NCBI GenBank assembly: GCA_039201605.1
Contig: JBCCRO010000001.1
Coordinates: 162,173 to 226,172 of the forward strand
DNA: 64,000 nt
Origin: Actinomycetota bacterium
GTDB lineage: Bacteria; Actinomycetota; Acidimicrobiia; Acidimicrobiales; SZUA-35
Direction of reading: 5' to 3'
Shown here: positions 1 through 39,576 of the stretch, one piece after another
How the letters are laid out: each line of letters starts with the position of its first letter
How positions within the stretch are numbered: the first letter of the stretch is position 1
The notes under the pieces: generated by a model
Told to the model about the DNA's origin: nothing
What the model saw: the letters and a program-made list of their open reading frames with translations, nothing else
The model's database searches: none
Position numbers and translations under genes: made by a program

Positions 1-430
1 CGAGCCCGAAGCTCGTGTTCAGGATCTCGGTGTCGGGGTCGAGGAGGTCGGCCTGCCACGGCGACACGCCGCCTTCGGCCAGGGGGTCGCCGGAGCTGGC
101 GACCATCGGCAGGTCCAGGGCCAGCAGCACGTCGGTCCACTGGAGGTCGAGCGACACGATCCGCTCCGGGCGTCCCTCGATCGTGGTCGAGCCGTAGCGG
201 TGTTCGATGACGACCGGCTCCGCCGTGTCGGCCTCGTCGTCGTCTCCATCGCCGGCCCCGTCGTCGGCCTCGGCGTCGGGCGTCGTCTCGGGGGAGGCGG
301 TGTCCTCGTCGGTGGCTGCGGGTTCGCTCGCCGTCGAGTCGGCGTCGCCGGCTCCGTCCTCACCACCGCAGGCGGCGAGGAGGATGGCGGCGAGCAGCAG
401 GGCGCACAGCGGGCGGGAGATGTTAGGCAA
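1..430 (-). CDS. iron-siderophore ABC transporter substrate-binding lipoprotein (N-terminal part; gene continues past the left edge)
   Basis: Absent from the ORF track because the window edge truncates it. Manual reverse translation from TTG at 430 gives MPNISRPLCALLLAAILLAACGGED (signal peptide plus lipobox LAAC). An acidic linker follows, then VVIEHRYGSTTIEGRPERIVSLDLQWTDVLLALDLPMVA, typical of FecB/FepB-type binding proteins. It lies on the same strand, 78 nt downstream of the aryl-AMP ligase. Confidence 0.7.
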   Translation of the reverse strand, partial: MPNISRPLCALLLAAILLAACGGEDGAGDADSTASEPAATDEDTASPETTPDAEADDGAGDGDDDEADTAEPVVIEHRYGSTTIEGRPERIVSLDLQWTDVLLALDLPMVASSGDPLAEGGVSPWQADLLDPDTEILNTSFGL

Positions 431-508
431 GCTTATCATTCGGCGGATGCTAGTCCCTTGGTCGGTGATCGATGGGCCGCCCCGGAGTCGATGGGGCGTC
501 TCGTGGGG

Positions 509-2164
509 TCAGGGGCGGGCCTCGGCGGCCACGGTGTCGGCCAGAGCCGCCTTGTCGAGCTTCCCGAAAGCGGTGACCGGCAGCGATCGGGCGATGTGGA
601 TCGAGTCGGGAAGCTTGAACGGCGCCAGTCCCCGGCCGGTGAGAAAGGTGCGGACATCGGCGAGATCGACCGTGGCCCCCGCCGGTTGGGTGGGGGAGAG
701 GACGAGTGCGGCCAAGATCCGCTCGCCCAGCATGTCGTCGGGCACCCCGATGACGGCGCTCTGGAAGACCGACGGGTGGGCGACGAGGTGCTCCTCGATC
801 TCGTCGGCGGCGACGTTCTCCCCGGCTCGGATGATGGTGTCCTTGATCCGACCCGTGACGACGAGCGAACCGTCGGGCTCCCGACGGACCCGGTCGCCCG
901 ACCGGTAGTAGCCGTCGGGGGTGAAGGCCGTGGCGTTGTGCTCCTCGGCGCGGTAGTAGCCGGCGATGGTGTACGGCCCACGGACCAGGAGCTCGCCGTC
1001 GGACCCGTCGGGCACGTCGACATCGTGCTCGTCCACGATCCGCACGTCGTCGTGGCCGCTGATCGGCCGTCCCTGCACCACCTGGACCCGGTCGCGGGGA
1101 TCGTCGGGTCGGGTGTGGCAGATCAGGCCCTCGGCCATGCCGAACACCTGGTGGACCGCCCCCGGAAGGACCTCCTCGAGGGCGGCGGCATCGGCGGGCG
1201 CGAGCTTCGATCCCCCGACCTGCAGCATCCGGAGCGAGGAGATGTCGGCCGGCTCCCATTCGGTGGCCGCACACCAGAGCTGGGCCAGCGCCGGCACGAG
1301 GGCGGACACCGTCACCCCGTGCGCCTCGATGAGGTCGAAGGCGTTGTCGGGGCTGGGGTCGTCGGTGAAGACCGTGTGGCCGCCGACGGCGAGCATGCCG
1401 AGGAGGCCCGGGCAGCACAGGGGGAAGTTGTGTCCGGCGGGCAGGGTGACCAGGTAGACGTCGTCGCCGTCGAGCCCGATCGTCCGAGCACAGTGGCGGG
1501 CGTTGAAGTCGTAGTCGTTGTGGGTCCGGGGGATGAGCTTCGGGAGCCCCGTCGTCCCGCCCGAGATCAGGAACAGGCACGGGTCGTCGGGGTCGATCCC
1601 GGTGGGGAACAGATCCCGGCTCGGGTCGCGCTCGGGGAGCGGGGCCCAGTCGCCGGCCTCACCGGAGACCAGCACCAGACGCAGGGAGTCGACGGCGGGC
1701 ATGATCTCGGCCGCCGTCCGGCGATGATCGAACCCGCGGCGACCGTCCTCGGTGATGTAGGCGGCGGCGCCGGACCGTTCGGCCAGATGGCCGATCTCGG
1801 CGGTCCGGTGGGCGGGCAGGGCCATGACGGGGACGAGGCCGGCCCGGAGGAGGCCGATCAGCGTGACGGCGAATTCGTTGGAGTTGCCGAGCTGGAGGAC
1901 GACCCGCTCGCCGGGTTCCAACCCGGCCGCGAGCAGACCGGCGGCCCGACGCTCGGCGGCGGCGAACAGGGCGGCGTAGGTCAGGGTTGACGGGCCGTCG
2001 ATCGAGGCGTCGGTGACGGCGGGGGCATCGGCGTGCGCCGCCGCCGAGTCGTGGAGCGACCGCCACAGGGTCCGCTGGCGGTAGAGCCCCGCCGAGCGGT
2101 ACGCCTCGACGGCCTCGGCCGGTCGGGGGACGAAGCCGCTAAGGAGTTGGGTTGTGGCCGCCAC
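509..2164 (-). CDS. mbtA: stand-alone aryl-acid adenylating enzyme (salicylate/2,3-DHB-AMP ligase, MbtA/EntE/DhbE family)
   Basis: 551-aa ORF with a GTG start and GAGGAG about 10 nt upstream. Adenylation cores are FLISGGTTGLPKLIPRTH, QVFGMAEG, YRSGDRV, GRIKDTIIRAGENVAADEIE and AFGKLDK. The binding-pocket stretch HNFPLCCPG (1406-1432) has Phe and Cys where DHB-specific enzymes have Tyr and Ser. Confidence 0.9.
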   Translation of the reverse strand: MAATTQLLSGFVPRPAEAVEAYRSAGLYRQRTLWRSLHDSAAAHADAPAVTDASIDGPSTLTYAALFAAAERRAAGLLAAGLEPGERVVLQLGNSNEFAVTLIGLLRAGLVPVMALPAHRTAEIGHLAERSGAAAYITEDGRRGFDHRRTAAEIMPAVDSLRLVLVSGEAGDWAPLPERDPSRDLFPTGIDPDDPCLFLISGGTTGLPKLIPRTHNDYDFNARHCARTIGLDGDDVYLVTLPAGHNFPLCCPGLLGMLAVGGHTVFTDDPSPDNAFDLIEAHGVTVSALVPALAQLWCAATEWEPADISSLRMLQVGGSKLAPADAAALEEVLPGAVHQVFGMAEGLICHTRPDDPRDRVQVVQGRPISGHDDVRIVDEHDVDVPDGSDGELLVRGPYTIAGYYRAEEHNATAFTPDGYYRSGDRVRREPDGSLVVTGRIKDTIIRAGENVAADEIEEHLVAHPSVFQSAVIGVPDDMLGERILAALVLSPTQPAGATVDLADVRTFLTGRGLAPFKLPDSIHIARSLPVTAFGKLDKAALADTVAAEARP

Positions 2165-2213
2165 GTCGATCGGGACTCCTCATGAGAGACATCTGCGGCG
2201 AAGATGCTGGACA

Positions 2214-2229
2214 TTTAGGACCACCTAAA
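2214..2229. promoter_or_regulatory. perfect palindrome TTTAGG-ACCA-CCTAAA in the AT-rich divergent promoter region 2165-2487 (candidate metalloregulator operator)
   Basis: Read directly from the DNA. The arms resemble IdeR/DtxR half-sites (TTAGG / CCTAA), but the spacing is shorter than the 19-bp consensus. It lies between divergently transcribed mbtA-like and mbtI-like genes. A 6-bp-arm palindrome in about 320 bp is only weakly significant. Confidence 0.3.
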
Positions 2230-2487: not shown

Positions 2488-3810
2488 ATGTCATTTACGG
2501 CCGATGTGCAGGCCGCCGCAATTCCTGCTGTCACCGGTGTCCAGGCGGCCAAGATCTGCGCCGCCTGGGCCGGATCGGGCCGATTCGGTGACCATGTGGT
2601 CTACGAGCACGCCGACCGTTGGAGCTTCGGAGGCGGCCGCAAGGCGTCGGTCCGACTCACGACCTCCGAGCTCGTGGTCGAGCGCGACGGGGTCGAGGTG
2701 CGGACGCCGTGGGACGGGGATCCGTCAGCCGCCCTGGGCGCCGCCCTCGACGCCATCGACGAGGACGGATGGCGGCTGTACGGCTGGGTGGGTTTCGACT
2801 TCGCCGCCGCCCAGCACGGCCTCCTCGACCGCGTGCCACCGGGGACGACGCTCGCCCATCTGGTGATCCCCGAGTTCGAGGCCACGGTCGGTGTCGCCGG
2901 CATCGACGTCGGCACCGCACCCCCGGAGACCGCAGCCCTGCTCCGGACGCTGGCCGACGAGGTGGAGCCGCTGGCCACCCCCTGCCCGATCTCGGTTCAC
3001 CTCGATCCCTACGGCTACGAGGACATGGTGGCCACCGCCGTCGGGGAGATCGAGCGGGGCGACTACCGGAAGGTGATTCTCTCCCGGGTGGTGGAGGTGC
3101 CCTTCGCCGTCGACCTCCCTCGGACGTACGCCCTCGGTCGCGCCAGGAACAACCCGGCCCGGTCCTACCTCTTCCAGCTGGACGATCTCAGCGCCGTCGG
3201 GTTCAGCCCCGAGCTGGTGCTGGCCGTCGACGCCGACCGCATCGTGCAGACCGAGCCGCTGGCCGGCACCCGGGCCCTCGGCATCGGGGCCGCCGCCGAC
3301 GCCGAAGCCCGACGAGAGCTGCAATCCGACGTCAAGGAGATCGCCGAACACGCCATGTCGGTGCGGGCCTGTTGGGAAGAGGTCGAGTCCGTCTCCCGGC
3401 CCGGCACCACGGCCGTCAGCGAGTACATGGTGGTGAAGGACCGCGGCAGCGTGCAGCATCTGGCGTCGACGGTCCGCGGCCGATTGGCCGACGACCTCAA
3501 CCCGTGGCACTCGTTCGCCGTCGCCTTCCCGTCGATCACCGCCTCGGGAATCCCCAAGACCGAGGCCCTGGAGGCGATCTACCGGTTGGAGCCCCTGCGG
3601 CGGAACCTCTACTCGGGTGCCGTGGTGACGGCGTCGTCCGCCGGCGATCTGGAGGCGGCACTGGTGCTGCGCACCGTCTTCTCCAGCGGCGGCCGAACCT
3701 GGCTGCGGGCCGGGGCCGGGATCGTCGAACAGTCCCGTCCGAGCCGCGAGTTCGACGAGACGTGCGAGAAGCTCGGGAGCATCGCGCCCTTCCTCGTGCC
3801 CGCCCGATGA
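2488..3810 (+). CDS. mbtI: salicylate synthase / isochorismate synthase family enzyme (MbtI-like chorismate-utilising enzyme)
   Basis: 440-aa ORF with GGAGAG upstream of the ATG. Motifs: SPELVLAVDADRIVQTEPLAGTRALG, KEIAEHAMSV, FPSITASGIPK, RNLYSGAVV, GAGIVEQSRPSREFDET. No isochorismatase (EntB-type), EntA-type dehydrogenase or PchB-like lyase is present in the window. Confidence 0.85.
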   Translation: MSFTADVQAAAIPAVTGVQAAKICAAWAGSGRFGDHVVYEHADRWSFGGGRKASVRLTTSELVVERDGVEVRTPWDGDPSAALGAALDAIDEDGWRLYGWVGFDFAAAQHGLLDRVPPGTTLAHLVIPEFEATVGVAGIDVGTAPPETAALLRTLADEVEPLATPCPISVHLDPYGYEDMVATAVGEIERGDYRKVILSRVVEVPFAVDLPRTYALGRARNNPARSYLFQLDDLSAVGFSPELVLAVDADRIVQTEPLAGTRALGIGAAADAEARRELQSDVKEIAEHAMSVRACWEEVESVSRPGTTAVSEYMVVKDRGSVQHLASTVRGRLADDLNPWHSFAVAFPSITASGIPKTEALEAIYRLEPLRRNLYSGAVVTASSAGDLEAALVLRTVFSSGGRTWLRAGAGIVEQSRPSREFDETCEKLGSIAPFLVPAR

Positions 3811-3850: not shown

Positions 3851-6800
3851 GTGCCGATCCGATCGACGAGCGACCGCACCGGGCCCGATGCCGAGGGTCG
3901 TTCGACCGCTTGCGGGCCGGGCGAACGGGCGGCATCCGTGACCTGGTCGGTCTCCGACGCCGCTGTCGGTGCGGCCGCCGAGCACGGTCCTTCGCTGTCG
4001 GACCAGCAGGAGCGGATCTGGTACCTGTCACGACTGGACCCCGAAGGACCCGGGCTCAACGTCGGTCTGGCCCTGCACCTGGACGGCCCGCTCGATCTCG
4101 ACCGGCTCGATGGCGCCGTGCGGCTCGTCGCCCGCCGCCATCCGCGTCTGACGGCGGTGTTCGGAGTCGACGACCGGGGCGAGCCCCGCTTGCGGAGCAC
4201 CGGCGAGGGCGCAGGCCTGATCGTGTTGGATGAGCTCGACATCGACGCCCCGGCGTGCGGGTCCGTGACCGACGACGCCCTCCAGGTGGTGCTGCGACGC
4301 CGATTCGATCAGAGCTTCGACCTGGCCGGGGAGCCGCCCCTGCGGACAGCCGTCGTGCCGCTAGGCCCGACCGGTCACGTCCTCATCGTGGTCGGCCACC
4401 GCATCGCCATCGATCCCCAGCTCTGGCCCGCTTACCTCGACGAGGTGGCCGTCGCCTACCGGGCCCAGGACCCCGAGCCGGCGGTGGCCGCCGAGACCGG
4501 CCCCGGCTCCTCGTCCGGGACGGTTTCGCCCTCGCCGTCACCGTCGACGAACGGGCAGGCCGCGCCGGCCCCGGCGCCGATCTCACCCCCGCCGTCGGCG
4601 GTCGCGAACGGGCACGCCGCGCCGGCGCCGATCTCACCCCCGCCGTCGGCGGTCGCGAACGGGCACGCCGCGCCCGCGGTGGTGTCGAGGCTTCGACCGG
4701 TCGAGGCCGAGGTACCGCCGCTCGAGTTCCCCGGCGAGTCGCGGAGCCGTCGGCTGCCCGGGTCGGCGGCGGCGATGCTCACTATCGAGCTTGGAGCCGA
4801 TCGACTGGCGACCCTTCGTGACGTGGCGGGCGAGGCCGGGGTCGGTCCGTCGGAGGTGTTCGTCGCCCTGTTCCAGCTCGTCCTGGCCCGGACGTGTTCG
4901 GCCCCCGACCATCTGTTGGAGCTGGCGTCGGCGCCCGGTGCCGATGCCCGCCGCGAGCTGCTGGACGCTCCGGTCGACCGCAGCGTCGTGATCCGGTCCC
5001 TGATCGACGAGGACCGACCGCTGTCCGAGCTGCTCCGGCTGGTGAAGGCCGAGACCTCCCGCGCCCGGGTCACCGGCCCGGGCGGGACGAACGGCGCCCC
5101 GGCCGCCGACGATGAGCTGCTGCCCGATCGCCGGGCCCTCACCCGCGTCCGGTTCGCCGAGCACACCTCCCCGGCCGCCGCCTTCGACCTGCCGGGTGTG
5201 TCGGCCACGGTGCTGGCCGCCGGGACCGGACACGCCTTGGTCCCGCTGACCCTCACCGTCGAGTCCGAGCCGTCGGGCGGCGTCACGCTGCGGCTGGAGT
5301 ACCAGATCGACGTCGTGTCGGACGTGGTGGCCACCGCCGTCGAGTGGCAGCTGCGCGGCGCCGTCGAAGCGCTGTCGCCCGAGCTGCTCGACGAACCGCT
5401 GTCCCGGCTGCCGTCGGTGGCTCCGTCCCGGCGGGACCTCCTCCTCGACTTCGCCCGCGGCGCCCGGTCGCCGGACGGCCCGGCCACCCTGCCCGAGCTG
5501 GTCTCCGCCGCGGCGGCCGAGCGGCCGAACGAGGTGGCGGTGGTGGCCCCGGACGGTGTGCTGCGCTTCGGCCCCCTGCTCGACGATGCCGACCGGCTGG
5601 CCGCCGTACTGGCCGACCAGGGCGTGCGAGCCGGCGACGTGGTGGCCACCCTGCTGGCCCCCTCGGCCGAGCTCGTGGTGACCGCGGTCGCCATCGTCCG
5701 CCTCGGCGCCGTCTACCTCCCCCTCGACCCCGATCTGCCCTCCGGCGAGATCGATCGGCTCCTGGCCGAGACCCGGCCGGTCGGGCTGATCGGCCCGGGC
5801 GCCGCAGGGCGGGCCGATGTGACGGGGCTGTCGACGAAGCGATTGACGGCGACCCCCAACCCGGCCCACCCCGTCGTACCTCGCCACCCCGTCCCCTCGC
5901 CCGAGGATCCCGCCTTCATCGTGGGCTGCGGCGTCGGCGACGAGCTGCGGGGCGTGGTGGTGAGCCACCAGGCGATCTCCGGCTACCTCCGGTGGATCGT
6001 ACGGCTGGGCGACCTGGGTCCGGCCGACTCGGTGCTGCAGGTGGCGCCACCCGGCTTCGACGCCAGCGTGGGTGAGATCTTCGGCTGCCTCATCAGCGGC
6101 GCCCGGCTCGTCATCCCCCGGTCGGGTGGTCTGGCCGACGTCGGCTACCTGGGGTCGCTCCTCGACGAGCAGCACATCACGTCGCTGCACATGGTGCCGT
6201 CGCTCCTCGGGGCCTTCCTCGCCCTCCCCGGAGTCGAGCGGTGGACGACGCTGCGGCGCGTCCCCGTCGGCGGCGAGCCGCTGTCCGGTGATCTGGCCGA
6301 TCGCTTCAACGCCACCTTCGACGCCGAACTGCACAACTTCTACGGCTCGGCCGAGGTCACGCTCGCCGCCTGCCATCAGCAGGTCGGGTTCGGGCAGGGT
6401 CCGGGGGTGGTGCCGATCGGGCGGCCGAAGGCCGACGCCGACGTCCACGTGCTCGACGAACGCCTGCGGCTCGTCGAGGTCGGCGTGGTGGGGGAGATCT
6501 ACGTCGGGGGGTCACAGCTGGCATCGGGCTACCACCGGCGGACGGGCGACACCGCCGCCCGCTTCGTCGCCGACCCCTTCACCGACGGCGGTCGTCTGTT
6601 CCGGACGGGCGACCTCGGTCGATGGTCGGCGGATGGGACCCTCGACTACGTCCGTCGGGCCGATCGGGAGCTGCGCGTCCGCGGTCATCGCCTCGACGCC
6701 GCCGAGGTGGAGGCGGCGGTGGCCAGCGCCGCCGGTTCGACCCAGTGCGTGGTCGACGTCAGCGGGGGCGACGCCGAGGCCCGACTGCTCGCCTATGTGG

Positions 6801-27771: not shown

Positions 27772-28011
27772 ATGGCTAGTTCGATCAGCACCGAATTCGA
27801 CGAGATCCTCCGGGAGGAGCTGGCGATCGACACCTCCCGGTTGACCAGGGAGTCGCACCTCATCGACGACGTCGGGCTCGACTCGGTCGCCTTCGCCGTC
27901 GGCATGGTCGCCATCGAGGACAAGCTCGGGGTGGCCCTCACCGAGAGCGAGCTGATGGAGTGCTCGACCGTCGCCGACCTCGAAGACATGGTCTTCGCCA
28001 AGCGGGGTTGA
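27772..28011 (+). CDS. mbtL: acyl carrier protein (MbtL-like)
   Basis: 79 aa with DDVGLDSVAF (DSx phosphopantetheine site). It lies directly upstream of, and overlaps, the FAAL start. Confidence 0.85.
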   Translation: MASSISTEFDEILREELAIDTSRLTRESHLIDDVGLDSVAFAVGMVAIEDKLGVALTESELMECSTVADLEDMVFAKRG

Positions 28012-30939: not shown

Positions 30940-31575
30940 TCAGACCGGCGGGGGATAGGCCGGCAGGTCGTCGGGCGTGCGGGGCACGACGTAGAGCGCC
31001 ACCTTGCGGTCGGGGCGCATCCAGTGCTCGCCCAGGAAGATGCCACCGCCGAAGGCCGACAGACGACGCATCACGGTGTTGCGGTAGTCGGGCTCGAAGA
31101 TGATGCGTCGGCACTGCGGATCGAGTCGCCAGATGCTCTCGATCAGGCGGGGGAGGAGGCGGGCCCCGGCGCCCTTGTTGACCGCGGACAGTTCGCCGAT
31201 GGCGGCGTGCATGCCGATGTCGTGGGGGTGGGTCTCGTAGGAGCCGGCGATCTGGTCCCGGGCGGCCCGGTAGATCTCGAGGTAGCCCATCGGCTGGTCG
31301 TTGTACTCGCCGATCAAGGGTCGGGAGTAGGCGCCATCGACCTGAGCCCGCAGGTAGGCGCCCCAGCGTTGCTCGGGCCAGGCGTACTCCCAGGTCTCGG
31401 CCAGGTGCGGCTGGTTCATCCACTCGGTGATCAGCGCCGTGTCGTCGCTGTCGGGGTCGGCCACCCGCAGACCGTAGGGCGCCTCGACCTCCGGGATCGG
31501 GGGAGGGGGCACCGCTCGGATCTCGTCGGGGAGGTCGGTGAGTTCTCGCGCCAGGATCGGCTGGTCGGTTGGCAT
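30940..31575 (-). CDS. mbtK: N-hydroxy-lysine N-acyltransferase (MbtK/IucB family GNAT-like)
   Basis: Only the last 211 aa of the 701-aa ORF 30940-33045 are used, starting at ATG 31575 (MPTDQPIL). Motifs: ITEWMNQPHLAETWEYAWP, GYLEIYRAARD, RRIIFEPDYRN. Confidence 0.85.
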   Translation of the reverse strand: MPTDQPILARELTDLPDEIRAVPPPPIPEVEAPYGLRVADPDSDDTALITEWMNQPHLAETWEYAWPEQRWGAYLRAQVDGAYSRPLIGEYNDQPMGYLEIYRAARDQIAGSYETHPHDIGMHAAIGELSAVNKGAGARLLPRLIESIWRLDPQCRRIIFEPDYRNTVMRRLSAFGGGIFLGEHWMRPDRKVALYVVPRTPDDLPAYPPPV

Positions 31576-31676: not shown

Positions 31677-31704
31677 GTAGGTGGCAATACCTGCTGGCGT
31701 TAGC
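31677..31704. promoter_or_regulatory. AT-rich promoter island motif GTAGGTGGCAATACCTGC...GTTAGC between mbtK-like and mbtH-like genes
   Basis: An imperfect 6-6-6 inverted repeat, GTAGGT-GGCAAT-ACCTGC. The 9-mer GCAATACCT (31684-31692) and hexamer GTTAGC (31699-31704) recur at 36813-36841. The decamer GTAGGTG(G/A)CA recurs at 21551-21560. A TAATAT -10-like hexamer sits at 31711-31716. Confidence 0.3.
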
Positions 31705-31739
31705 ATATCTTAATATCGGAAGTAAGGAAGGCTGTAACC

Positions 31740-31964
31740 ATGAATCCGTTCGATGATGAGGACGCTCGATTTCTCGTCCTGCGGAACGTCCAGGGCCAGT
31801 ACTCGTTGTGGCCGGTGTTCGCCGACGTCCCGGGCGGCTGGGACGTCGTTTTGGCCGAGACCGACCGGGCGACGTGCCTGGCCTACGTGGACGAGCACTG
31901 GACCGATCTGCGCCCAGCCCAACTGGCCTCGGCCGAGACCGCACCCGATCACGCCGCACCGTGA
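31740..31964 (+). CDS. mbtH: MbtH-like protein
   Basis: 74 aa: MNPFDDEDARFLVLRNVQGQYSLWPVFADVPGGW...YVDEHWTDLRP. An AAGGAAGG RBS lies upstream. Confidence 0.95.
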   Translation: MNPFDDEDARFLVLRNVQGQYSLWPVFADVPGGWDVVLAETDRATCLAYVDEHWTDLRPAQLASAETAPDHAAP

Positions 31965-32040: not shown

Positions 32041-32808
32041 ATGGAGGGATCGCTTCGGATCGGTCACCGGCCCGGCGGGCTTGAGAGCCGCCCCGGCACC
32101 GTCGACCTGCTCTGTGTGACCGAGGGCCGCCCCGGCACCGTCGACCTTCTCTGTGTGACCGAGCGGTGTCTGGCGGTCGAGCCGGGTCCCGACGCCTACG
32201 CCCTGCTCGACGAGTCCGAGCGCCTCCGGGCCCGGCGGTACCACCGGGTGGCCGATCGGGCCCGGTTCGTGGCCGCCGCAGGCCTGGTGCGACGGGTGGC
32301 TGCCCGATTGGCGGGCTGCGCTCCGCACGAGATCGCGCTCGATCGCCGCTGCGACTCCTGCGGTCGGCCGCACGGCAAGCCCCGCCTGAGAGACCGGTCG
32401 ATCGAGGTGTCGATCTCCCACGCCGGTGACCATGTGGCCGCCGCCGCCAGCGCCGTCGGCCCGGTCGGGGTGGACGTGGAGCAGGTCGGCGGGGTGGGCG
32501 ACGACCGGGCGGGCCTGCTCGACCTCGTCTGCGGGCCCGGCGAGCGCACCGTGGCCGAGACCCCGCTGGGGTTCTACCGGCTCTGGACCGACAAGGAAGC
32601 CGTGCTGAAGGCGACCGGCGACGGGCTTCGGGTGCCGATGAGCGAGGTCGTGGTAGCCGGGCCCCGCTCGGAGCCGGGCTGGGTCACGGTCGAGGGATCC
32701 CGCCACCCGCTCGTCCTGCAGACCTTCACCCCGGGGCCGGACCACGTCGGGAGTATCGCCGTGCTGGCCCCGGGGCCGGTCCACACCAGGGTGGAGGTCA
32801 GAGGGTGA
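32041..32808 (+). CDS. Sfp-type 4'-phosphopantetheinyl transferase
   Basis: Motifs: CGRPHGKPRL, VSISHAGD, GVDVE, FYRLWTDKEAVLKATG. The start is uncertain (ATG 32041 or GTG about 32003). Confidence 0.85.
   Translation: MEGSLRIGHRPGGLESRPGTVDLLCVTEGRPGTVDLLCVTERCLAVEPGPDAYALLDESERLRARRYHRVADRARFVAAAGLVRRVAARLAGCAPHEIALDRRCDSCGRPHGKPRLRDRSIEVSISHAGDHVAAAASAVGPVGVDVEQVGGVGDDRAGLLDLVCGPGERTVAETPLGFYRLWTDKEAVLKATGDGLRVPMSEVVVAGPRSEPGWVTVEGSRHPLVLQTFTPGPDHVGSIAVLAPGPVHTRVEVRG
32087..32164 (+). repeat. 39-bp in-frame tandem duplication (2 copies, 2 mismatches) at the PPTase N-terminus
   Basis: 32087-32125 and 32126-32164 encode (S)RPGTVDLLCVTE(G)RPGTVDLLCVTE. Confidence 0.9.
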
Positions 32809-33545
32809 TGACGACGAAGTCGCTCGACGCCTCGTGGTTCCGGCCGGCGGCGACCGGGTCCGGCCGCCGGACGGTGGTGCTGTTCCCACCGGCCGGGGGC
32901 GGGTCCTCCGGGTTTCGTCGGTGGGCCGACGTCGGCACCGACAACGACGTCGACATCTACGTCGTGACGGCACCCGGTCGCGAACACCGGGTGCGGGAGA
33001 CCCCCTACCACCACGTCGACTCCGTCCTGCGGGTGGTCGTCCCACAGCTCGAAGCCCTCCCGACCCCGCTGGTGCTGTTCGGCCACAGCATGGGGGGTCT
33101 ACTGGCGGCCGAGACCGCGGCCCGCCTCAGTCGCAGCGTGGACCATGTGGTCGTGGCCGCCAGTCCCGCCCCGGCCCAGGTCGTCCCCACCCTGGTCAAC
33201 GCCTCCGACGCCGACCTGGTGGCCGCCATGCGCTCGTGGGGAGGCACCCCCGATGCCGTGCTCGACGACGAGGAGATGCTGGCCCTGCTGCTGCCCTGCC
33301 TCCGGGGCGACATCGCCGTCGGCTATTCGTGCCTGCAGGCCATGGTCCACCGTCGGCTGCCGGTCCCGTTCACGGCGCTGGCCGGCCGCAACGACGCCAC
33401 CGTCCCGGTGGCGAGCATGCGGGGCTGGGAGGAGCACACCTCGGCCGGTTTCCGCTTCACCGAGGTCAGTGGCGGGCACTTCTTCCCCTTCGCCGCATCG
33501 ACCCCGGTGGTCGACGTCGTGCTCGACGCCTTCACCTCCGCCTGA
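32805..33545 (+). CDS. type II thioesterase
   Basis: 246 aa with LFPPAGGG and GHSMGG, and a conserved His near the C-terminus (SGGHFF). The start overlaps the PPTase stop. Confidence 0.9.
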   Translation: MMTTKSLDASWFRPAATGSGRRTVVLFPPAGGGSSGFRRWADVGTDNDVDIYVVTAPGREHRVRETPYHHVDSVLRVVVPQLEALPTPLVLFGHSMGGLLAAETAARLSRSVDHVVVAASPAPAQVVPTLVNASDADLVAAMRSWGGTPDAVLDDEEMLALLLPCLRGDIAVGYSCLQAMVHRRLPVPFTALAGRNDATVPVASMRGWEEHTSAGFRFTEVSGGHFFPFAASTPVVDVVLDAFTSA

Positions 33546-33551
33546 CGTCCG

Positions 33552-33593: not shown

Positions 33594-36500
33594 TCAATCG
33601 GCGAGTACGGCGGTGTCGGCCCGGGCGCTGTCGAGCAGGTGGGCGAGCTCCCGCAGGTCGGCGGCGCTCATCACGTCGGCCGGGCCCACCGTCCACGACA
33701 GCGTGCGCAGCCGGGCGACCAGATCCATGGTGGCGAGGCTGTCGAGCCCGGCCTCGACCAGCGGGGCGTCGAGGGCGATGCCGGTCAGCTCGGCCAGGAG
33801 GGCCTCGGTGGGCGACGCCGGCTGCGGCCCGGCGCCGGAGGGGCGGGCGGCGTCGAGCAGGGCTCGGGCCGCCGGCGCGTCGAGCTTGTCGTTGCGGTTG
33901 AGGGGGATGGCCTCGACCTCGGCGATCAAGGCCGGAATCATGAAGTGGGGCAGGCGGTCGGCGAGGAGGGACCGGATCCGGGCGGCCGAGATGTCGGCCA
34001 CGACGAGGGCGGCCAGGCGGGTGCGGCCCTTCCGAACATCGACCAGCACCTCGGCCCGATGGACCCCGGGCAGCAGGCCGATGGCCGAAGCCACCTCGCT
34101 CGGCTCCACCCGGTAGCCGTTGATCTTGGTCTGGTCGTCGGCCCGGCCGCAGAACTCGACCCCGCTGTCCGCCACCGAGCAGACGAGGTCGCCGGTGCGG
34201 TAGCGGCGCCCGCCGTCGGGGCCGGCGACGAACGACGAGGCGGTCAGGCCCGCCTGGCCGACGTATCCCGTCGCCAGCTGGGGGCCCGACAGGTAGAGCT
34301 CGCCGATCCCGCCGCCGGGCACCGGACGGAGGCGATGGTCGAGTATCTCGGCCCCGCTGCGCAGCGTCGGCTGGCCGATCGAGGCCCGGTCGTGGTCGGC
34401 CACGTCGGCCATGAAGGCCTCGACGGTCGCCTCGGTCGGGCCGTAGAAGTTGAGCACCCGGGTGCCGTCGAGGGCCTGGAGGCGCTGCCAGACGTCGTCG
34501 TGGATGGCCTCGCCGCCGAGGGCCTGGATCGGTAGCAGGCAGCGTTCGTCCTCGGGCGGCCCGTGCAACAGGCCGGCGTCGGCCAGTCTCAGGAACATCG
34601 ATGGCGAGGTGTCGAGCATGTCGACGTCGTTGTCGGCCATGAACGCCACCAACCGCCCGGGGTCGACCCGCACGTCGTCGGGCACCACGACCAGGGTGTG
34701 TCCGCTCAGCAGCGCCACCGTCGGCTGCCAGGCGGCGTCGAACCCGGTCGACCAGGCGTGGGCCACCCGCAGGCTGCGGCCGAGCTGGTCGACGGCGGGC
34801 GACAGGACCTGTCGTTCGTGGTGGGCCCACAGGGCGAGCAGGGCTCGATGGGAGACGATCACGCCCTTGGGTTGGCCGGTGGTGCCGGAGGTGAACACCC
34901 CGTAGAGGGGCCGGTCGGGGTCGGCGGCCCCCGGTGCGGACCCGTGACCGGCCTCGGTCTCGGCGCCGGTCGCCGGGGGCAGGCCGCCGTCGTCGGCCGG
35001 GGTCAGCGCTCGCAGCGATCGACCGGCGGCGCCTGCCGCCTCGACGACGGCCACCTCCGAGAGATCGGCCAGGACGAGGTCGATCTCGGCGCCGGCGGCG
35101 ATCGTGGCCAGGCGCCCGGCCGGGGTGTCGGGATCGAGGTGGATGCAGATCGCACCCGCTTCGGCCACGGCGAACGGGGCCTGGATCACCCGCCGGTCCC
35201 GGCGCAGCATCACCCCGACGCGATCGCCGGGGCGGACGCCGTGGGCGGTGAGGCCGGCCGCCAGCCGGGATACCGCAGCCCGGAACGCCGCCATGGTCTG
35301 GCTGCCGGTCTGGTCGACGACGGCGTCGGCGTCGCCACGATCGTCGGCGATGGCGTCGAGCCGCTCGGCCAGCGTCGTCGGGGCGGTGGCGTCGGAGCCG
35401 GCGGCTCGATGGTGGGTGACCGCCCGCTCCTCGGGCAGGAGCACGTCGACGTCGGCCAGGGAGTCGGCGTCGACCAGGCGGCGGACGACGGCGAGGAAGC
35501 GGCGGGCCAGGTCGACGGGCGGGAAGCGGGCGGCGAGGTCGGGTCGGACCTCGGTGCGGGTCAGGAGCCGATCGCCGTCCACCACCGGCACCACCGCCAT
35601 GGGAAAGTGGGTGAGGGAACCGATGCGCTGGGTCACCACCGACCCGCCCGTCGGCAGTTCCACCTCGATGTCGGCGCCGATGGCGGGACTGTGTTCGACG
35701 ACGAGGAGGGTGTCGAACAGCGGGTCGACGCCGCAGGCGGTGGCGATCTCGTTGATGCCGATGTGCTCGAAGGGCCGCAGTTGCGACCCCGCCTGCTGCA
35801 GAGGTGTGCCGATGGCGGCCGGGGCCTCGTCGGTGACGACGACCCGCACCGGGGCGGTGGCGATCAGGGCCCCGACCAGTCGCTCGACGTCGGGGATGCT
35901 CGGGTGGCGGCCGGTGGTGGTCTGCCCGAACACCACGTCGTCGCTCGACAGCAGACCCGACAGGATGCGGGCCCACGCCAGCTGGAAGACCGTGCTCATG
36001 GTGAGACCGTTGCGGCGGGCCCACTCGATCACCGGAGCCGATTCCTCGGCGGTGAGGGCGGCATCACCCTCGATCGGCAGGTCGACCTCGGGCGGCGGCG
36101 GGGGAGCGACCGTGGCGCCCTCGGCCACGCCGTCCAGGGCCGCCCGCCACGCTTCGAGGGCATCGTCGATCGGCCGCTTGGCGAGCCACTCGGCGTGGAT
36201 CCGGATCGGGGTGGGGGAGGGCAACCCCTCCGGCCCGGCGGTGAGGATGGTGAGGAGATCGCCGAAGAGCACCGGGAACGACGCGCCGTCGATAACGATG
36301 TGGTGCATGGTGAAGACGAGCTGATACTCGGTGTCGCTGATGCGCCCGGCCACCACCCGGGACAGGGGCCCGGCGTGCACGTCGAGCGGGCGCCGCAACT
36401 CCTCCTCGTACAGTTCGTCGGCCCGCTGTTCGGCGTCTCCGGGCCGGTCTCGACGGTCGATCTCCTCCCAGTGGAGCGTCGGCTCGCCCGGCACCAGCAG

Positions 36501-36725
36501 GACCGGGTGCGGCACCCCGTCGGTGTGGACCCGCCCGGCGAGGTGGGGATGGCGGCGGAGGGCGGCGGCCACGGCGGAGCGGATCGCGCCCAGGTCCGGA
36601 ACGGCGCGGAGGCGGAGCGAAGCGGTGACGTTGTAGGGGTCGATACCGAGCCGACTGGCGCTGACGAGGTACATGCTCCGCTGGATGGGGGAGAGCGCAA
36701 CGATGTCGACGATGTCTGCGGGCAT
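33594..36725 (-). CDS. NRPS C-A-PCP (canonical module)
   Basis: C domain: LSPIQRSMYL, HHIVIDGAS. A domain: VFTSGTTGQPKG, FDAAWQPT, NFYGPTEAT, YRTGDLV, GRADDQTKINGYRVEPSEV, NDKLD. PCP: EAGLDSLATM. The start is taken at ATG 36725 (alternative GTG 36773). Confidence 0.9.
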   Translation of the reverse strand: MPADIVDIVALSPIQRSMYLVSASRLGIDPYNVTASLRLRAVPDLGAIRSAVAAALRRHPHLAGRVHTDGVPHPVLLVPGEPTLHWEEIDRRDRPGDAEQRADELYEEELRRPLDVHAGPLSRVVAGRISDTEYQLVFTMHHIVIDGASFPVLFGDLLTILTAGPEGLPSPTPIRIHAEWLAKRPIDDALEAWRAALDGVAEGATVAPPPPPEVDLPIEGDAALTAEESAPVIEWARRNGLTMSTVFQLAWARILSGLLSSDDVVFGQTTTGRHPSIPDVERLVGALIATAPVRVVVTDEAPAAIGTPLQQAGSQLRPFEHIGINEIATACGVDPLFDTLLVVEHSPAIGADIEVELPTGGSVVTQRIGSLTHFPMAVVPVVDGDRLLTRTEVRPDLAARFPPVDLARRFLAVVRRLVDADSLADVDVLLPEERAVTHHRAAGSDATAPTTLAERLDAIADDRGDADAVVDQTGSQTMAAFRAAVSRLAAGLTAHGVRPGDRVGVMLRRDRRVIQAPFAVAEAGAICIHLDPDTPAGRLATIAAGAEIDLVLADLSEVAVVEAAGAAGRSLRALTPADDGGLPPATGAETEAGHGSAPGAADPDRPLYGVFTSGTTGQPKGVIVSHRALLALWAHHERQVLSPAVDQLGRSLRVAHAWSTGFDAAWQPTVALLSGHTLVVVPDDVRVDPGRLVAFMADNDVDMLDTSPSMFLRLADAGLLHGPPEDERCLLPIQALGGEAIHDDVWQRLQALDGTRVLNFYGPTEATVEAFMADVADHDRASIGQPTLRSGAEILDHRLRPVPGGGIGELYLSGPQLATGYVGQAGLTASSFVAGPDGGRRYRTGDLVCSVADSGVEFCGRADDQTKINGYRVEPSEVASAIGLLPGVHRAEVLVDVRKGRTRLAALVVADISAARIRSLLADRLPHFMIPALIAEVEAIPLNRNDKLDAPAARALLDAARPSGAGPQPASPTEALLAELTGIALDAPLVEAGLDSLATMDLVARLRTLSWTVGPADVMSAADLRELAHLLDSARADTAVLAD

Positions 36726-36812
36726 GGGGGTCCGTTCTCTGCTCAGGAGGCCGGCGCCAGCGGAGCCGAACACTTCACGGCCCGACAGGTGTCAAGGAGG
36801 TACCAAGAAGGT

Positions 36813-36841
36813 GTTAGCAATACCTACAGAGCAATGTTAGC
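36813..36841. promoter_or_regulatory. AT-rich promoter island motif GTTAGCAATACCTAC...GTTAGC between the NRPS (-) and ABC exporter (+)
   Basis: Shares GCAATACCT (36817-36825) and GTTAGC (36813, 36836) with the island at 31677-31704. The 19-mer AGGTGTTAGCAATACCTAC matches an IdeR/DtxR-type consensus at only about 11 of 19 positions by my hand alignment. Confidence 0.3.
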
Positions 36842-36980
36842 TACTGTTATCACTACCGTGGCAAGGGCTGATCGAGCGATAAAGGTCACGTCCCCGGAGG
36901 CGGGGAGGCGGCCCGTCGGCGCCGGGGGAAACCCGACACCGGTTGGCTGGATTGTCGGAGGCCCGTGGTAGACACCCGGA

Positions 36981-37940
36981 ATGGGGTCACCGATCGCAGC
37001 AGAGGGCTTGCAACGACACTTCGGCGAGGTCGAGGCCGTCCGTCGAGTCGATCTCGAGGTGTCCCAGGGCGAGATCTACGGCTTCCTCGGGCCCAACGGC
37101 GCCGGTAAGTCCACCACCGTGCGCATGCTCACCACGCTGCTCAAACCGACGGCGGGCCGGGCCACCGTCGCCGGGTTCGACGTCGCCACCTCGGCCCACC
37201 AGGTGCGGCGACGGATCGGGGTCGCCCTGCAGGACGCCGCCATCGACCCGCTGATGACGGGCAACGAGCTGCTCCGCCTCCAGGCCACCCTGCACGGCAT
37301 CGGCAGGCGGGCGGGCCGTGTCCGAGGGGCGGAGCTGTTGGAGCGTGTCGGGCTCACCGAGGCCGGTGACCGTCGGGTCGGCACCTACTCCGGCGGCATG
37401 CGCCGCCGTCTCGATCTCGCCCTGTCGCTGATCCACGAGCCTGAGGTGCTCTTCCTCGACGAGCCGACCACCGGCCTCGATCCCAGCAGCCGGCAGAACC
37501 TGTGGTCGGAGGTTCGGCGGCTCAACGCCGAGGGCACCACCGTCTTCCTCACAACCCAGTACCTGGAGGAGGCCGACGAGCTGGCCCACCGGGTGGGGAT
37601 CATCGACGGCGGCCTCATCGTGCGCGAGGGCACGCCGATCGCCCTGAAGGAGGCCGTCGGTTCGCCGACCCTCCGCCTCGATGTGCTCGCCACCGACCTC
37701 GACGAGGCCCGGACGGTGATGGCCGCCTTCGGTGAGGCCCGCCCGGCTCGGGAGGGGCGCATCGCCATCGGCCTGGAGAACGGGGCCAACCGGCTGGCCG
37801 AGGTGGTCAGAGCCCTCGACGAGCGGAACATCGAGGTGTTGACGATGGAGCTCGACGCCCCCTCGCTCGACGACGTGTTCGCCGATGCCACCGGCCGTCG
37901 CCTCGAGGGCGCCGACGAGCAGGGCGAGGCCGGCCCATGA
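36981..37940 (+). CDS. ABC transporter ATP-binding protein (DrrA-like, ABC-2 exporter)
   Basis: GPNGAGKST, YSGGMRRRLDLA, LFLDEPTTGLD. Confidence 0.9.
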   Translation: MGSPIAAEGLQRHFGEVEAVRRVDLEVSQGEIYGFLGPNGAGKSTTVRMLTTLLKPTAGRATVAGFDVATSAHQVRRRIGVALQDAAIDPLMTGNELLRLQATLHGIGRRAGRVRGAELLERVGLTEAGDRRVGTYSGGMRRRLDLALSLIHEPEVLFLDEPTTGLDPSSRQNLWSEVRRLNAEGTTVFLTTQYLEEADELAHRVGIIDGGLIVREGTPIALKEAVGSPTLRLDVLATDLDEARTVMAAFGEARPAREGRIAIGLENGANRLAEVVRALDERNIEVLTMELDAPSLDDVFADATGRRLEGADEQGEAGP

Positions 37941-38764
37941 CCGTCGGGATCGAGCCCCACCGGACGGCGTCCGCCGATCTGCACCCGGTCAGGCACCTCG
38001 ACGCCTTCGTGGTCATGGCCCGCAGGTCGGTCATCGGGTTCTTCCGTCAGCCGGCCAGCTGGATCTTCGGCGCCGCCTTCCCCCTGCTGATCGCCGCCGT
38101 GTCGGCGTCGGCTTTCGCCCGGGCCACCTCGCTGCAGGACTTCCCCGACTCCAGGAGCTTCCTGCAGTTCCTGCTGGCCGGCACCATCCTGCAGGGCACG
38201 CTGTTCGGCTCGATCAACGCCTCCACCGACCTCGCCCTCGACATCGAGAACGGTTTCATGGACCGCCTGCTCGCCTCGCCGGTGTCCCGGGTGTCGATCC
38301 TGGTCTCGAGGCTGGCCGGCGCCGCAACCTACGGCGCCGGGGTCACCCTCTTCTACGTCGTGGTCTTCCGACTGTTCGGCGCCCCGGTCGAGGGCGGCAT
38401 CCCCGGCATCGTGGTGATGGTCGTGCTGGCGATGGTGATGGCGATCGGCGTCGGGGGTTACGGCGCAGCCGTCGGCCTGCGCACCGGGTCGGCCGAGGCC
38501 GTCGGCAACTCGTTCCCGCTGCTGTTCATCCTGCTCTTCATCTCCAGCGCTTTCTTCCCCGTCGAGCTGATGTCGGGCGCCTACCGGCGGGTGGCCGAAC
38601 TCAACCCGATCACCTACGTGATCGACGCCTGCCGCCACCAGGTGCTCGAAGGCTTCAGCCTCGGTGAGGCCGTCGTCGGCCTACTGGTCGCCGTCGCCTT
38701 CGCCGCCTCCACGATCGCCTTCGCCCTGCTCCAGTTGCGCAGGAAACTGGCGGACGTGTCATGA
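37937..38764 (+). CDS. ABC-2 type transporter permease
   Basis: The ATG overlaps the upstream stop (ATGA). 275 aa with a multi-TM hydrophobic profile. Confidence 0.85.
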   Translation: MTVGIEPHRTASADLHPVRHLDAFVVMARRSVIGFFRQPASWIFGAAFPLLIAAVSASAFARATSLQDFPDSRSFLQFLLAGTILQGTLFGSINASTDLALDIENGFMDRLLASPVSRVSILVSRLAGAATYGAGVTLFYVVVFRLFGAPVEGGIPGIVVMVVLAMVMAIGVGGYGAAVGLRTGSAEAVGNSFPLLFILLFISSAFFPVELMSGAYRRVAELNPITYVIDACRHQVLEGFSLGEAVVGLLVAVAFAASTIAFALLQLRRKLADVS

Positions 38765-39576
38765 CCGCCACACCGGTGACGGCGTCGACCGAGCGGGCCG
38801 CGCCCCGGTCGGTGCCCCTGTTTCCGGTGATCGTCGAGCTGGTGCAGCGCAACATGCTGGCGATCACCCGGGTGCCGGCCGCCGTCGGCCCCATCCTGGT
38901 CATGCCGATCTTCTTCATGATCGCCTTCGCCGGCTCCTACTCGGCCATCACGGCGATCCCGGGGTTCCCGACCGACAACATCTACAACTGGTTCGTCCCC
39001 TACGCCTGTATCCAGGGGGCGGCGTTCGGAGGGATCGGCATCGGGTTCGGTACCGCACGCGATCTGGAGAACGGCTTCTACGACCGGCTCCTGCTCGCCC
39101 CGGCCGGACGTCGGGCCCTGGTGCTCGGCCCACTCGGCACCTCGCTGGTCCGCTCGACGTTCCCCCTCGTCACCGTGCTGCCCCTGGGCATCGTCCTCGG
39201 GGCCGACTGGCCGGGCTTCACCGGGCTGGCGATGCTGATCCTCACCGGTGGCATCTTCGCCTGCTGCACCGGCCTGTGGGCGCTCGGCGTGGTGTATCGA
39301 CTGCGGAACCAGCGATCGTTGGGCCTGGTCCAGGTCGGCATCTTCGCCACCCTCTTCCTGTCGATCGGTCAGGTGCCCCTGGCCGTCATGGAGGGGTGGT
39401 TGCACGGTGCGGCCCGGTTCAACCCGACCACCAACCTGCTGCGCATGGCCCGACAGGGCTTCCTCGACGACGGTGTGACATGGACGCTCACCTGGCCCGG
39501 CCTGGTGGCGTCGGCCGCGATGCTGGCCGGTCTCGGGCTGTTCGCCCTGACGGGGCTTCGCCGCCTCGACGACTGA
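38761..39576 (+). CDS. ABC-2 type transporter permease (second subunit)
   Basis: The ATG overlaps the upstream stop (ATGA). 271 aa, multi-TM. Confidence 0.85.
   Translation: MTATPVTASTERAAPRSVPLFPVIVELVQRNMLAITRVPAAVGPILVMPIFFMIAFAGSYSAITAIPGFPTDNIYNWFVPYACIQGAAFGGIGIGFGTARDLENGFYDRLLLAPAGRRALVLGPLGTSLVRSTFPLVTVLPLGIVLGADWPGFTGLAMLILTGGIFACCTGLWALGVVYRLRNQRSLGLVQVGIFATLFLSIGQVPLAVMEGWLHGAARFNPTTNLLRMARQGFLDDGVTWTLTWPGLVASAAMLAGLGLFALTGLRRLDD

Follow-up and report, generated by a model that had tools for sequence, protein, structure and literature searches.

Mycobactins and nocobactins are a textbook family of siderophores and a target for drugs against tuberculosis. In Mycobacterium tuberculosis, the biosynthetic genes are laid out as mbt-1 (mbtA-J) and a separate mbt-2 (mbtK-N), and to our knowledge a small polyketide synthase (PKS) makes the hydroxy-acid bridge between the hydroxamate arms in every described mycobactin and nocobactin. 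The role of mbtK-N is the acylation of the internal hydroxylysine (PMC9505556). In M. tuberculosis and M. smegmatis the lipid is carried on the lysine and a short PKS spacer is kept; in M. abscessus, M. marinum and Nocardia, mbt-2 is absent and the lipid is on the PKS-derived acid (PMC9505556). Here we describe a 64,000-nucleotide stretch of DNA (the window) from an uncultured actinobacterium that carries a mycobactin-type cluster of nonribosomal peptide synthetase (NRPS) genes together with mbtK-N-like lipid-tail genes, and in which no PKS gene was found.

We consider it about an even bet that this locus is a PKS-deleted derivative of a conserved, single-locus NRPS-PKS cluster of the mycobactin/nocobactin type, with an amino acid taking over the spacer position from the polyketide. 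The predicted product would be a fatty-acylated salicyl-oxazoline bis-hydroxamate with an amino-acid spacer. The system as such belongs to a known kind, and its product and activity are predictions from sequence.

By exact protein look-up, the window belongs to a metagenome-assembled genome (MAG) named 'Actinomycetota bacterium' (proteins MEM9889352-372), of which two sibling assemblies exist. A contig of one sibling (GCA_039196935.1, JBCCUJ010000006.1; locus L001) matches the window at 99.65% identity over 13.8 kb, a length in which only 19 mismatches to the sibling MAG were counted, and it reaches 5,383 bases left of window position 1. The G+C content of the window is approximately 72%, and a screen of G+C at third codon positions (GC3) singled out a single coding frame for most of its genes. 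All open reading frames (ORFs) of the cluster are intact, with coding-type GC3 of 0.85-0.92, and neither frameshifts nor premature stops were found in its ~45 kb. The genes listed in the original prediction, an earlier reading of the same DNA, were all recovered by Pfam, NCBIfam, PDB or motif matches where it had put them or within a few codons. Stop and start codons overlap at seven gene junctions (8566/8569, 9948/9951, 16904/16907, 29669/29672, 32805/32808, 37937/37940 and 38761/38764), which confirms the translational coupling that it had proposed. Its inventory was incomplete, since two NRPS-like genes (3851-8569, 1572 aa, and 13593-16907, 1104 aa) had been omitted, and the locus is not contained within about 39 kb as it had stated: the left window edge cuts the cluster, and L001 shows how it continues.

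The absence of a PKS had also been predicted, and two kinds of search agreed with it. No ketosynthase (KS) or acyltransferase (AT) domain was found by Pfam in nearly all of the long ORFs with coding bias in the window up to 60.4 kb; two further ORFs, at 60.5-64.0 kb, lay outside the Pfam scan and within the tblastn search. The latter, in which the queries were the MbtC-like KS and the MbtD-like AT-ketoreductase-acyl carrier protein (AT-KR-ACP) of relatives, returned nothing at E <= 1 from the window or from the 5.4-kb left flank given by the sibling contig, so the KS/AT gene that might have been sought just left of position 1 was not there. Because there was no match even at this threshold, pseudogene remnants of a PKS are likewise absent from the window and the 5.4-kb left flank. 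Beyond the cluster, the right flank within the window encodes ordinary enzymes and regulators according to Pfam.

The place where the PKS would be expected could be located precisely. In the relatives that show this junction, a thioesterase (TE), a KS and an AT-KR-ACP protein stand between an NRPS of ~2020 aa and the ACP of the lipid-tail set. This TE-KS-(AT-KR-ACP) segment is absent there in the window, in which 48 nt separate the stop codon of the 2030-aa NRPS (27723) from the start codon of the ACP (27772). In the two sibling assemblies, the GenBank accessions are numbered such that precisely these genes, and no others, fit at this junction, which argues against a mis-assembly.

Single-locus relatives of the cluster, all uncharacterised, occur in Dactylosporangium sp. 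NPDC005572 (JBEXCY010000083.1), a genus that we take to be a member of the Micromonosporaceae, in Rhodococcoides kyotonense JCM 23211 (FZOW01000028.1), in Rhodococcus sp. 14-2483-1-2 and in metagenome contigs. Window orthologues share 47-73% protein identity with them and stand largely in the same order. In terms of adenylation (A), condensation (C), thiolation (T), epimerisation (E) and heterocyclisation (Cy) domains, the shared genes encode an aryl ligase, a salicylate synthase, a C-A-T-C protein, a hydroxylase, T-Cy-A-T, C-A-T and C-T proteins and an IrtAB transporter. They further include a ~2020-aa C-A-T-E-C NRPS, an ACP-fatty acyl-AMP ligase (FAAL)-acyl-ACP dehydrogenase (ACAD) set, MbtK, a siderophore-interacting protein (SIP), a binding protein and DrrABC. 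Some of the relatives' contigs end inside the cluster, and not every gene is visible in each.

The order in Rhodococcoides is NRPS (2010 aa)-TE-KS-(AT-KR-ACP)-ACP-FAAL-ACAD, then a divergent MbtK gene, the binding protein, DrrABC and IrtAB. The block NRPS (~2010-2023 aa)-TE-KS-(AT-KR-ACP)-ACP-FAAL-ACAD-MbtK is present in Rhodococcoides, Rhodococcus and two metagenome contigs, and NRPS-TE-KS is present in a third metagenome contig. In Dactylosporangium, the order is C-A-T-C, hydroxylase, Cy module, C-A-T, C-T, IrtAB, 2023-aa NRPS and thioesterase, with an MbtC-like KS on the contig; MbtK adjoins the core genes, and ACP-FAAL-ACAD was not found on the part of the contig examined. We found no literature report of mycobactin-type siderophores from this genus, in which strain NPDC005572 carries a mycobactin-like NRPS-PKS cluster. 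A PKS was present in all examined relatives whose contig reaches that part of the cluster. Unlike the window, the relatives carry a KS (plus AT-KR-ACP where the contig reaches) after the large NRPS and thioesterase, whereas only the window lineage has a stand-alone A domain (505 aa) and ACP (96 aa) beside the thioesterase; in the window, moreover, the C-A-T-C protein has an inactivated A domain and the large NRPS an inactivated E domain.

We also surveyed 80 mbtK loci from GTDB species representatives, with classes scored within 10 kb of mbtK. The gene stood alone at 36 loci, and 28 had tail genes only, without NRPS or KS, which is the classical split mbt-2. An NRPS was present without any tail genes at nine loci, and tail genes lay beside a KS or AT-KR-ACP at five; at the remaining two, both from Mycolicibacter sinensis, they lay beside MbtA, MbtB, IrtAB and salicylate synthase genes with no KS. 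Core and tail genes in one locus are normal outside Mycobacterium. The original prediction was therefore right that both gene sets sit together here, but this is not remarkable, since the layout is normal in Rhodococcus, Rhodococcoides and metagenome contigs and is found in Mycolicibacter sinensis as well.

To the left of the window, L001 carries genes for a binding protein, a stand-alone A domain (505 aa), a 96-aa ACP, a 250-aa thioesterase and a serine hydroxymethyltransferase (SHMT), all on the strand of the aryl ligase gene. The A-ACP-TE-SHMT operon (L001 561-4397, at 2.1-5.4 kb beyond the left window edge) has frames that overlap or nearly abut; past it, the contig ends after a convergent panD. 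The thioesterase shares 54-58% identity with the KS-preceding thioesterase of the relatives, as compared to 24% with the type II thioesterase of the window. The 96-aa ACP keeps the DSL serine, the thioesterase keeps GHSMG and the SHMT passes the ordinary SHMT subfamily model. No orthologue of the 505-aa A domain or the 96-aa ACP was found in any of the related loci compared, and scans of genome contigs and metagenome contigs with the stand-alone A domain, whose pocket code is DLLPLGCVYK, gave no match. A discrete A domain and an SHMT have been reported in one Nocardia nocobactin-like cluster (PMC7413640).

The simplest reading of these arrangements would be that an ancestral TE-KS-(AT-KR-ACP) segment lost both PKS genes and that its thioesterase now lies beside an A-ACP pair able to supply a carrier-bound building block. 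The co-transcribed SHMT is a weak hint that the spacer may be glycine or serine. More tentatively, an evolutionary swap is possible, in which the KS and AT-KR-ACP gave way to a free-standing A domain and carrier beside the NbtA-like thioesterase; the spacer would then be an amino acid, possibly glycine or serine, and the resulting all-peptide, fatty-acylated 'aza-mycobactin' would be the first of its kind. If true, this would be a natural PKS-to-NRPS module substitution within one scaffold.

The window genes on which the proposed pathway draws, and the two NRPS-like genes that accompany them, are as follows.
509-2164, minus strand: aryl (salicyl)-AMP ligase, MbtA-like (Pfam AMP-binding; pocket code)
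2488-3810, plus strand: salicylate synthase, MbtI-like (TIGR03494 equivalog passed, 470 bits against a cut-off of 325)
3851-8569, plus strand: NRPS-like C-A-T-C protein with inactivated motifs, 1572 aa (Pfam; motif inspection)
8566-9951, plus strand: L-lysine N6-hydroxylase, MbtG/NbtG-like (Pfam Lys_Orn_oxgnase; PDB 4D7E)
9948-13475, plus strand: aryl carrier protein (ArCP)-Cy-A-T loading and heterocyclisation module, MbtB/NbtF-like (Pfam domains T-Cy-A-T)
13593-16907, plus strand: C-like domain, A-domain remnant and T domain, 1104 aa (kin of discrete C-T didomain proteins of nocobactin-like clusters)
21631-27723, plus strand: 2030-aa NRPS, C-A-T-(dead E)-C, proposed to incorporate the internal acyl-N-hydroxylysine (Pfam)
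27772-28011, plus strand: acyl carrier protein, MbtL-like (PRK05883 equivalog passed, 108 bits against 72; DS motif)
28008-29672 (start candidates 28008-28014), plus strand: fatty acyl-AMP/acyl-ACP ligase, MbtM-like (NF004510 equivalog passed, 679 against 621 bits)
29669-30826, plus strand: acyl-ACP dehydrogenase, MbtN-like (NF037942 full-length match)
30940-31575, minus strand: N6-hydroxylysine N-acyltransferase (divergent GNAT), MbtK-like (Rv1347c, the M. tuberculosis MbtK, PDB 1YK3, E=9e-64)
33594-36773 (start perhaps 36725), minus strand: NRPS C-A-T, proposed terminal N6-hydroxylysine module (Pfam)

In the pathway that we propose, salicylate would be made, adenylated and loaded, and then condensed and cyclised with Ser/Thr on the 9948-13475 protein to yield salicyl-oxazoline. 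Lysine would be N6-hydroxylated, and MbtK would acylate it with fatty acyl-ACP from the MbtL/M/N-like proteins. The 2030-aa NRPS would add the resulting N6-acyl-N6-hydroxy-L-lysine, which would stay in the L form because the E domain is dead. Its C-terminal C domain, which in the relatives would hand the chain to a PKS-bound beta-hydroxy acid, would instead join a small amino acid, loaded by the 505-aa A domain with either the 96-aa ACP or the T domain of the 13593-16907 protein as carrier. The 33594-36773 module would then add N6-hydroxylysine, and the chain would probably be released as a caprolactam, for which the retained NbtA-like thioesterase is a candidate. The DrrABC-like pump would export the product, the binding protein and IrtAB-like transporter would re-import the ferric complex, and the SIP protein would reduce the iron.

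Several of these assignments could be compared with known enzymes. The best NCBIfam match of the aryl ligase is a dihydroxybenzoate (DHB)-AMP ligase (535 bits, under the cut-off of 723.55), and its pocket code, PLPAQGVICK, agrees at 9/10 positions with that of the Mycolicibacter MbtA (PLPAQGVLCK); from its context, we infer a specificity for salicylate over DHB. The sole PDB match of the hydroxylase is the NbtG L-Lys monooxygenase 4D7E, over the full length (E=2e-134). The loading module is 45-46% identical to the Mycolicibacter MbtB-like protein and has the Cy motif DMLAADAMS, which fits DxxxxDxxS, the ArCP motif GIHS and the T motif GGNS. Its code, DILGMGLIHK, compares with DLLNLGLIHK and DLFNLGLIHK in the relatives and DMLNLGLIHK in the Mycolicibacter MbtB-like protein (7/10). 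The code of the 33594-36773 module, DAQDAGFVEK, matches that of the mycobacterial gene just upstream of mbtG (DAQDAGCVEK) at 9/10 positions, with DAQEGGFVDK in the orthologues, and the protein is 61% identical to its Dactylosporangium orthologue. The 21631-27723 code, DVASVGLMDK, is conserved in orthologues and assignable to no substrate.

Pocket codes are thus conserved between the window and its PKS-containing relatives, and together with the NbtG-type hydroxylase and MbtK they would fit salicylate, Ser/Thr and two N6-hydroxylysine derivatives. Of the earlier expectation of codes for Ser/Thr/Cys and two Lys/Orn-type residues, the 33594-36773 code, which agrees with that of the MbtF-position gene, is in line with one of the latter, and the 21631-27723 code speaks neither for nor against the other. 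For MbtE and MbtF we presumed the substrate specificities of published work. The A-domain alignment reference was a GrsA sequence, which on checking returned the published PheA code DAWTIAAICK. In four of the mycobacterial loci (L028, L037, L043 and L051), an mbtK paralogue lies directly 3' of mbtG-mbtH, and the NRPS upstream of the MbtF-position gene has the code LEMTVGNGAK without Asp235; this may be real or an alignment artefact, and the code was not used.

The lipid-tail genes have the order and orientation (ACP-FAAL-ACAD with a divergent MbtK) of 35 other surveyed mbtK loci. The MbtN-like dehydrogenase scored 654.5 bits against its model NF037942 (E=4e-197), just below the cut-off of 700, and the MbtK-like protein is 69% identical to that of Dactylosporangium sp. 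NPDC005572, 65% to that of Rhodococcus sp., 64% to that of Rhodococcoides kyotonense and at most 60% to those of mycobacteria.

The condition of the NRPS domains is mixed. Intact A3, A5, A10, T serine and HHxxxD motifs are present in the Cy module and in the two modules proposed for lysine. In the 2030-aa NRPS, the C1 (HHIAWD), A3, T (GGDS) and C3 (HHVISDG) motifs are intact, and in the 33594-36773 protein HHIVIDG, A3 and GLDS are intact. The middle domain of the 2030-aa NRPS reads LVAGGLVADPPS, in contrast to HHLVVDGVS in the Dactylosporangium and metagenome orthologues; the dead motif is also present in the sibling MAG, and this domain is 33% identical to its Dactylosporangium orthologue, as compared to 57-69% for the other domains. 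Of the two C-A-PCP modules that the original prediction called canonical, the 33594-36773 protein is indeed C-A-T, but the 21631-27723 protein is a 2030-aa C-A-T-(inactive E-like)-C synthetase.

The two NRPS-like genes that it omitted are the most diverged from Dactylosporangium, at ~40% identity compared to 54-61% for the other NRPS genes. The 3851-8569 protein, identical in sequence in the sibling MAG, has the C motif HRIAID, has lost A3 (GCGVGDELRG), has GSAE at A5 and Ala in place of the T serine (LGGTAL), and its C-terminal C domain reads HALSAD, without the second histidine. Its Dactylosporangium orthologue (~42% identity) retains A3, A5 and HHVAAD, and there too the T serine is gone (GGHP). 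Since the serine is missing from both (GGTA, GGHP), the protein had departed from a normal module even before the loss of the PKS, and it is probably non-catalytic, judging from its motifs. A Pro/Ala-rich direct repeat, in two overlapping copies that are 86% identical, occupies 4526-4678 inside its N-terminal C-like domain and is not found in the Dactylosporangium orthologue.

In the 13593-16907 protein, Pfam found only PP-binding and a weak AMP-binding_C match, no A domain was detectable by BLAST, and a word-based homologue search gave only the protein itself. A full HMMER search identified its relatives as C-T didomain proteins of ~550 aa, among them a gene of the Dactylosporangium cluster (P0103, 39% identity), plus one 1074-aa C-A-T protein (P0188). 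In the window protein, the family-invariant H150 and D155 are retained, as are the T serine and a C-terminal PMSASGLD tail. This tail, which follows the T domain (16830-16904 in the window) and is invariant in all relatives, may be a docking element. The family also has a non-canonical C motif, VHPVAADD, in which the second histidine is gone. Discrete C-T proteins and C-A-T-E-C NRPSs are recurrent extras of nocobactin-like clusters, in which the core scaffold is unchanged (PMC7413640).

With these domains in view, the product can also be drawn without a spacer, as the original prediction had it. The cluster would then be active, the salicyl-oxazoline, N6-acyl-N6-hydroxylysine and N6-hydroxylysine (as lactam) would be amide-joined, and the A-ACP-TE-SHMT genes would serve for precursors or editing. 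Consistent with this, a PKS is absent from the window and the 5.4-kb flank, only two NRPS modules besides the Cy module are motif-intact, and the SHMT, which fits the ordinary model, could simply provide serine or glycine. However, two intact C domains (the C-terminal one of the 2030-aa NRPS and that of 33594-36773) would compete for a single condensation, and an NbtA-like thioesterase that was retained and moved beside a lineage-specific A-ACP pair is hard to explain without replacement of the PKS carrier. The A-ACP-TE-SHMT operon left of position 1 thus makes a spacer-less product less likely than one with a substitute spacer, and we regard the former as unlikely. What stands of the earlier product reading is a mycobactin-type lipo-siderophore locus whose genes fit N-hydroxylysine chemistry, without a PKS in the window or the 5.4-kb flank; the simple spacer-less product is its less likely part.

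A second alternative is that the locus is a decaying remnant which, after loss of the PKS, makes no siderophore or only shunt products while its domains are inactivated one by one. Relative to the Dactylosporangium and metagenome orthologues, the losses are lineage-specific: HH became GG in the E domain, and A3, A5 and the terminal C histidine were lost from 3851-8569. That gene has also received the Pro/Ala-rich repeat, the A domain of 13593-16907 is unrecognisable, and these are the two genes with the greatest divergence. Decay of the whole pathway is nevertheless quite unlikely in our view. The ~45 kb free of frameshifts and premature stops, with coding-type GC3 throughout, argues against it, as does the fact that every motif required for the minimal pathway is intact. 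The T serine of 3851-8569 is gone from the PKS-containing Dactylosporangium cluster as well, so this defect predates the loss of the PKS and was tolerated, and the lineage gained an A-ACP pair. Given the domain decay, an impaired pathway is still a real possibility.

The weakest alternative, an MbtC/MbtD-like PKS encoded elsewhere and acting in trans to give an ordinary mycobactin-type depsipeptide, is improbable: split pathways are documented (in mycobacteria as mbt-1/mbt-2, and for nocobactin as two clusters, I and II, separated by 180 kb; PMC7413640, PMC9505556), MAGs are probably incomplete and our view to the left is limited to 5.4 kb, but the relatives with the same layout all carry KS and AT-KR-ACP genes in the stretch from the NRPS to the ACP, the partner thioesterase has moved to a place beside the A-ACP pair, and among the best 120 matches (all at least 707 bits) of an MbtC-like KS profile search of 5.8 billion proteins none bears the MAG's 'Actinomycetota bacterium' label, although other proteins of the MAG occur in that database as 'MAG: ... 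[Actinomycetota bacterium]'.

Several points weigh against a PKS-deleted cluster with an amino-acid spacer. The left flank is known for 5.4 kb only, from a sibling contig that ends there, and the absence of a PKS covers the window and this flank, not the whole genome, so that a trans-acting PKS is possible. The A-ACP-TE-SHMT operon may have a different function, for instance in precursor supply, and the likeness of DLLPLGCVYK to Gly/Ala codes, as we take the published ones to be, is weak. A C domain downstream of a dead E domain is expected to favour a D-configured donor, which could stall the assembly line. The several inactivations, with A3, A5 and the terminal C histidine gone from 3851-8569, an A-domain remnant in 13593-16907 and a dead E domain in the 2030-aa NRPS, suggest relaxed selection, and the three assemblies, ~99.6% identical, are too alike for selection to be measured (dN/dS). 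Finally, a canonical IdeR iron box is absent from the window at up to 3 mismatches.

The remaining cluster genes in the window encode accessory and transport proteins.
1-439, minus strand: siderophore-binding lipoprotein, N-terminal part (Peripla_BP_2), in a gene that crosses the left window edge
16904-18865, plus strand: IrtA-like ABC permease/ATPase without the N-terminal SIP domain (best PDB match IrtA)
18796-20670 (start perhaps 18862), plus strand: IrtB/YbtQ-like ABC permease/ATPase (IrtB and YbtQ score about equal)
20784-21488, minus strand: siderophore-interacting (ferric reductase) protein (Pfam SIP, FAD_binding_9)
31740-31961, plus strand: MbtH-like protein (NPFDD...SLWP...PGGW signature)
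32041-32808 (start 32005 or 32041), plus strand: Sfp-type phosphopantetheinyl transferase (Pfam ACPS, AASDHPPT_N)
32805-33545, plus strand: type II thioesterase (Pfam Thioesterase; GHSMG motif)
36981-39576, plus strand: DrrA-like ATPase and two ABC-2 permeases (Pfam)

The lipoprotein fragment matches a 363-aa Peripla_BP_2 gene of L001 at 100% over 146 aa. The IrtA-like protein aligns with residues 251-894 of IrtA (E=3.5e-134), that is, with its membrane and ATPase parts only. For the SIP gene, the ATG at 21488 gives 234 aa, equal in length to the Dactylosporangium orthologue. The MbtH-like protein is 52-61% identical to the products of mbtH-position genes in mycobacterial loci, and the type II thioesterase is just 24-29% identical to NbtA-like thioesterases. 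The DrrABC-like trio, which is also present in the Dactylosporangium and Rhodococcoides clusters, is a probable exporter.

The motif GTTAGCW occurs at 3 sites in the 64 kb, all of them in the two divergent promoters of the cluster (31678-31720 and 36809-36855) and next to AGGT...ACCT palindromes, at a count that is not above chance. AT-rich palindromes in these two promoters may be candidate operators for an iron regulator. Scans of the window for Rfam families and tRNAs returned nothing. Right of the cluster, a DM13-domain protein (minus strand) and an acyl-CoA dehydrogenase ORF (plus strand) share 39655-41662, where their maximal ORFs overlap by ~470 bases; the true start of the latter is probably much later, as its domains begin at residue 163. 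At 55246-58147, a TetR regulator, an FMO-like monooxygenase of the flavin type that also matches Lys/Orn oxygenase weakly, and a short-chain dehydrogenase look unrelated to the siderophore cluster. Two minus-strand ORFs with coding-type codon bias, 41746-43248 (500 aa) and 53951-55099 (382 aa), matched no Pfam family at E <= 0.001.

A cluster that has lost the PKS yet retains head group, lysine hydroxamates and mbt-2 lipidation machinery would define a third structural solution in the family. It would also be a natural experiment in how a hybrid assembly line is re-wired after loss of a module, and in which domains then decay or persist. A C domain that normally feeds a PKS carrier and a trans-acting A-ACP pair would be parts for the engineering of mycobactin analogues.

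When compared with the mycobactin systems of M. tuberculosis and M. smegmatis, the window shares the salicylate synthase, salicyl-AMP ligase, Cy module, lysine N6-hydroxylase, MbtH and IrtAB-like importer, as well as MbtL-M-N with a divergent MbtK in mbt-2 order. It differs in that MbtC and MbtD are missing and core and tail genes share one locus; its SIP is a separate gene, not fused to IrtA, and it has extra NRPS-like genes and an ABC-2 exporter. With Nocardia nocobactin NA and the nocobactin-like subfamilies II, VI, VIII and IX (PMC7413640), it has in common the T-Cy-A-T protein (NbtF), the NbtG-type hydroxylase and the NbtA-like thioesterase, and with nocobactin-like clusters (PMC7413640) the discrete C-T-type protein and the C-A-T-E-C NRPS. 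In contrast to the window, which has fatty-acylation genes and no PKS, nocobactins carry acetyl or formyl groups on their hydroxylysine and a long chain from the PKS (nbtB/nbtC).

Similar to kasichelins, amychelin, gobichelin, cahuitamycin and madurastatin (PMC12305651), the locus would pair an aryl-oxazoline head with a tail made of a cyclic N-hydroxy amino acid, in an NRPS-only pathway. In kasichelins, a small (beta-)amino acid, not a hydroxy acid, joins the two chelating groups (PMC12305651), and by analogy they would be a precedent for the proposed amino-acid spacer without a PKS. However, siderophores of the kasichelin/amychelin/gobichelin type use N-hydroxyornithine and lack both the MbtK-N lipidation genes and IrtAB, and the window hydroxylase is of the NbtG lysine type, unlike the ornithine N5-hydroxylase of these pathways. 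The window proteins are orthologous to those of the mycobactin/nocobactin lineage and not to the kas genes, with which no direct sequence comparison was made. We found no PKS-free cluster with mbtK-N in the literature, which is not proof that none exists. With the lipid on lysine and no PKS, the window locus would be a third arrangement beside the two known ones; since it lacks the PKS, one defining feature of the family, it is best described as a variant of the mycobactin/nocobactin pathway and not as a strict member.

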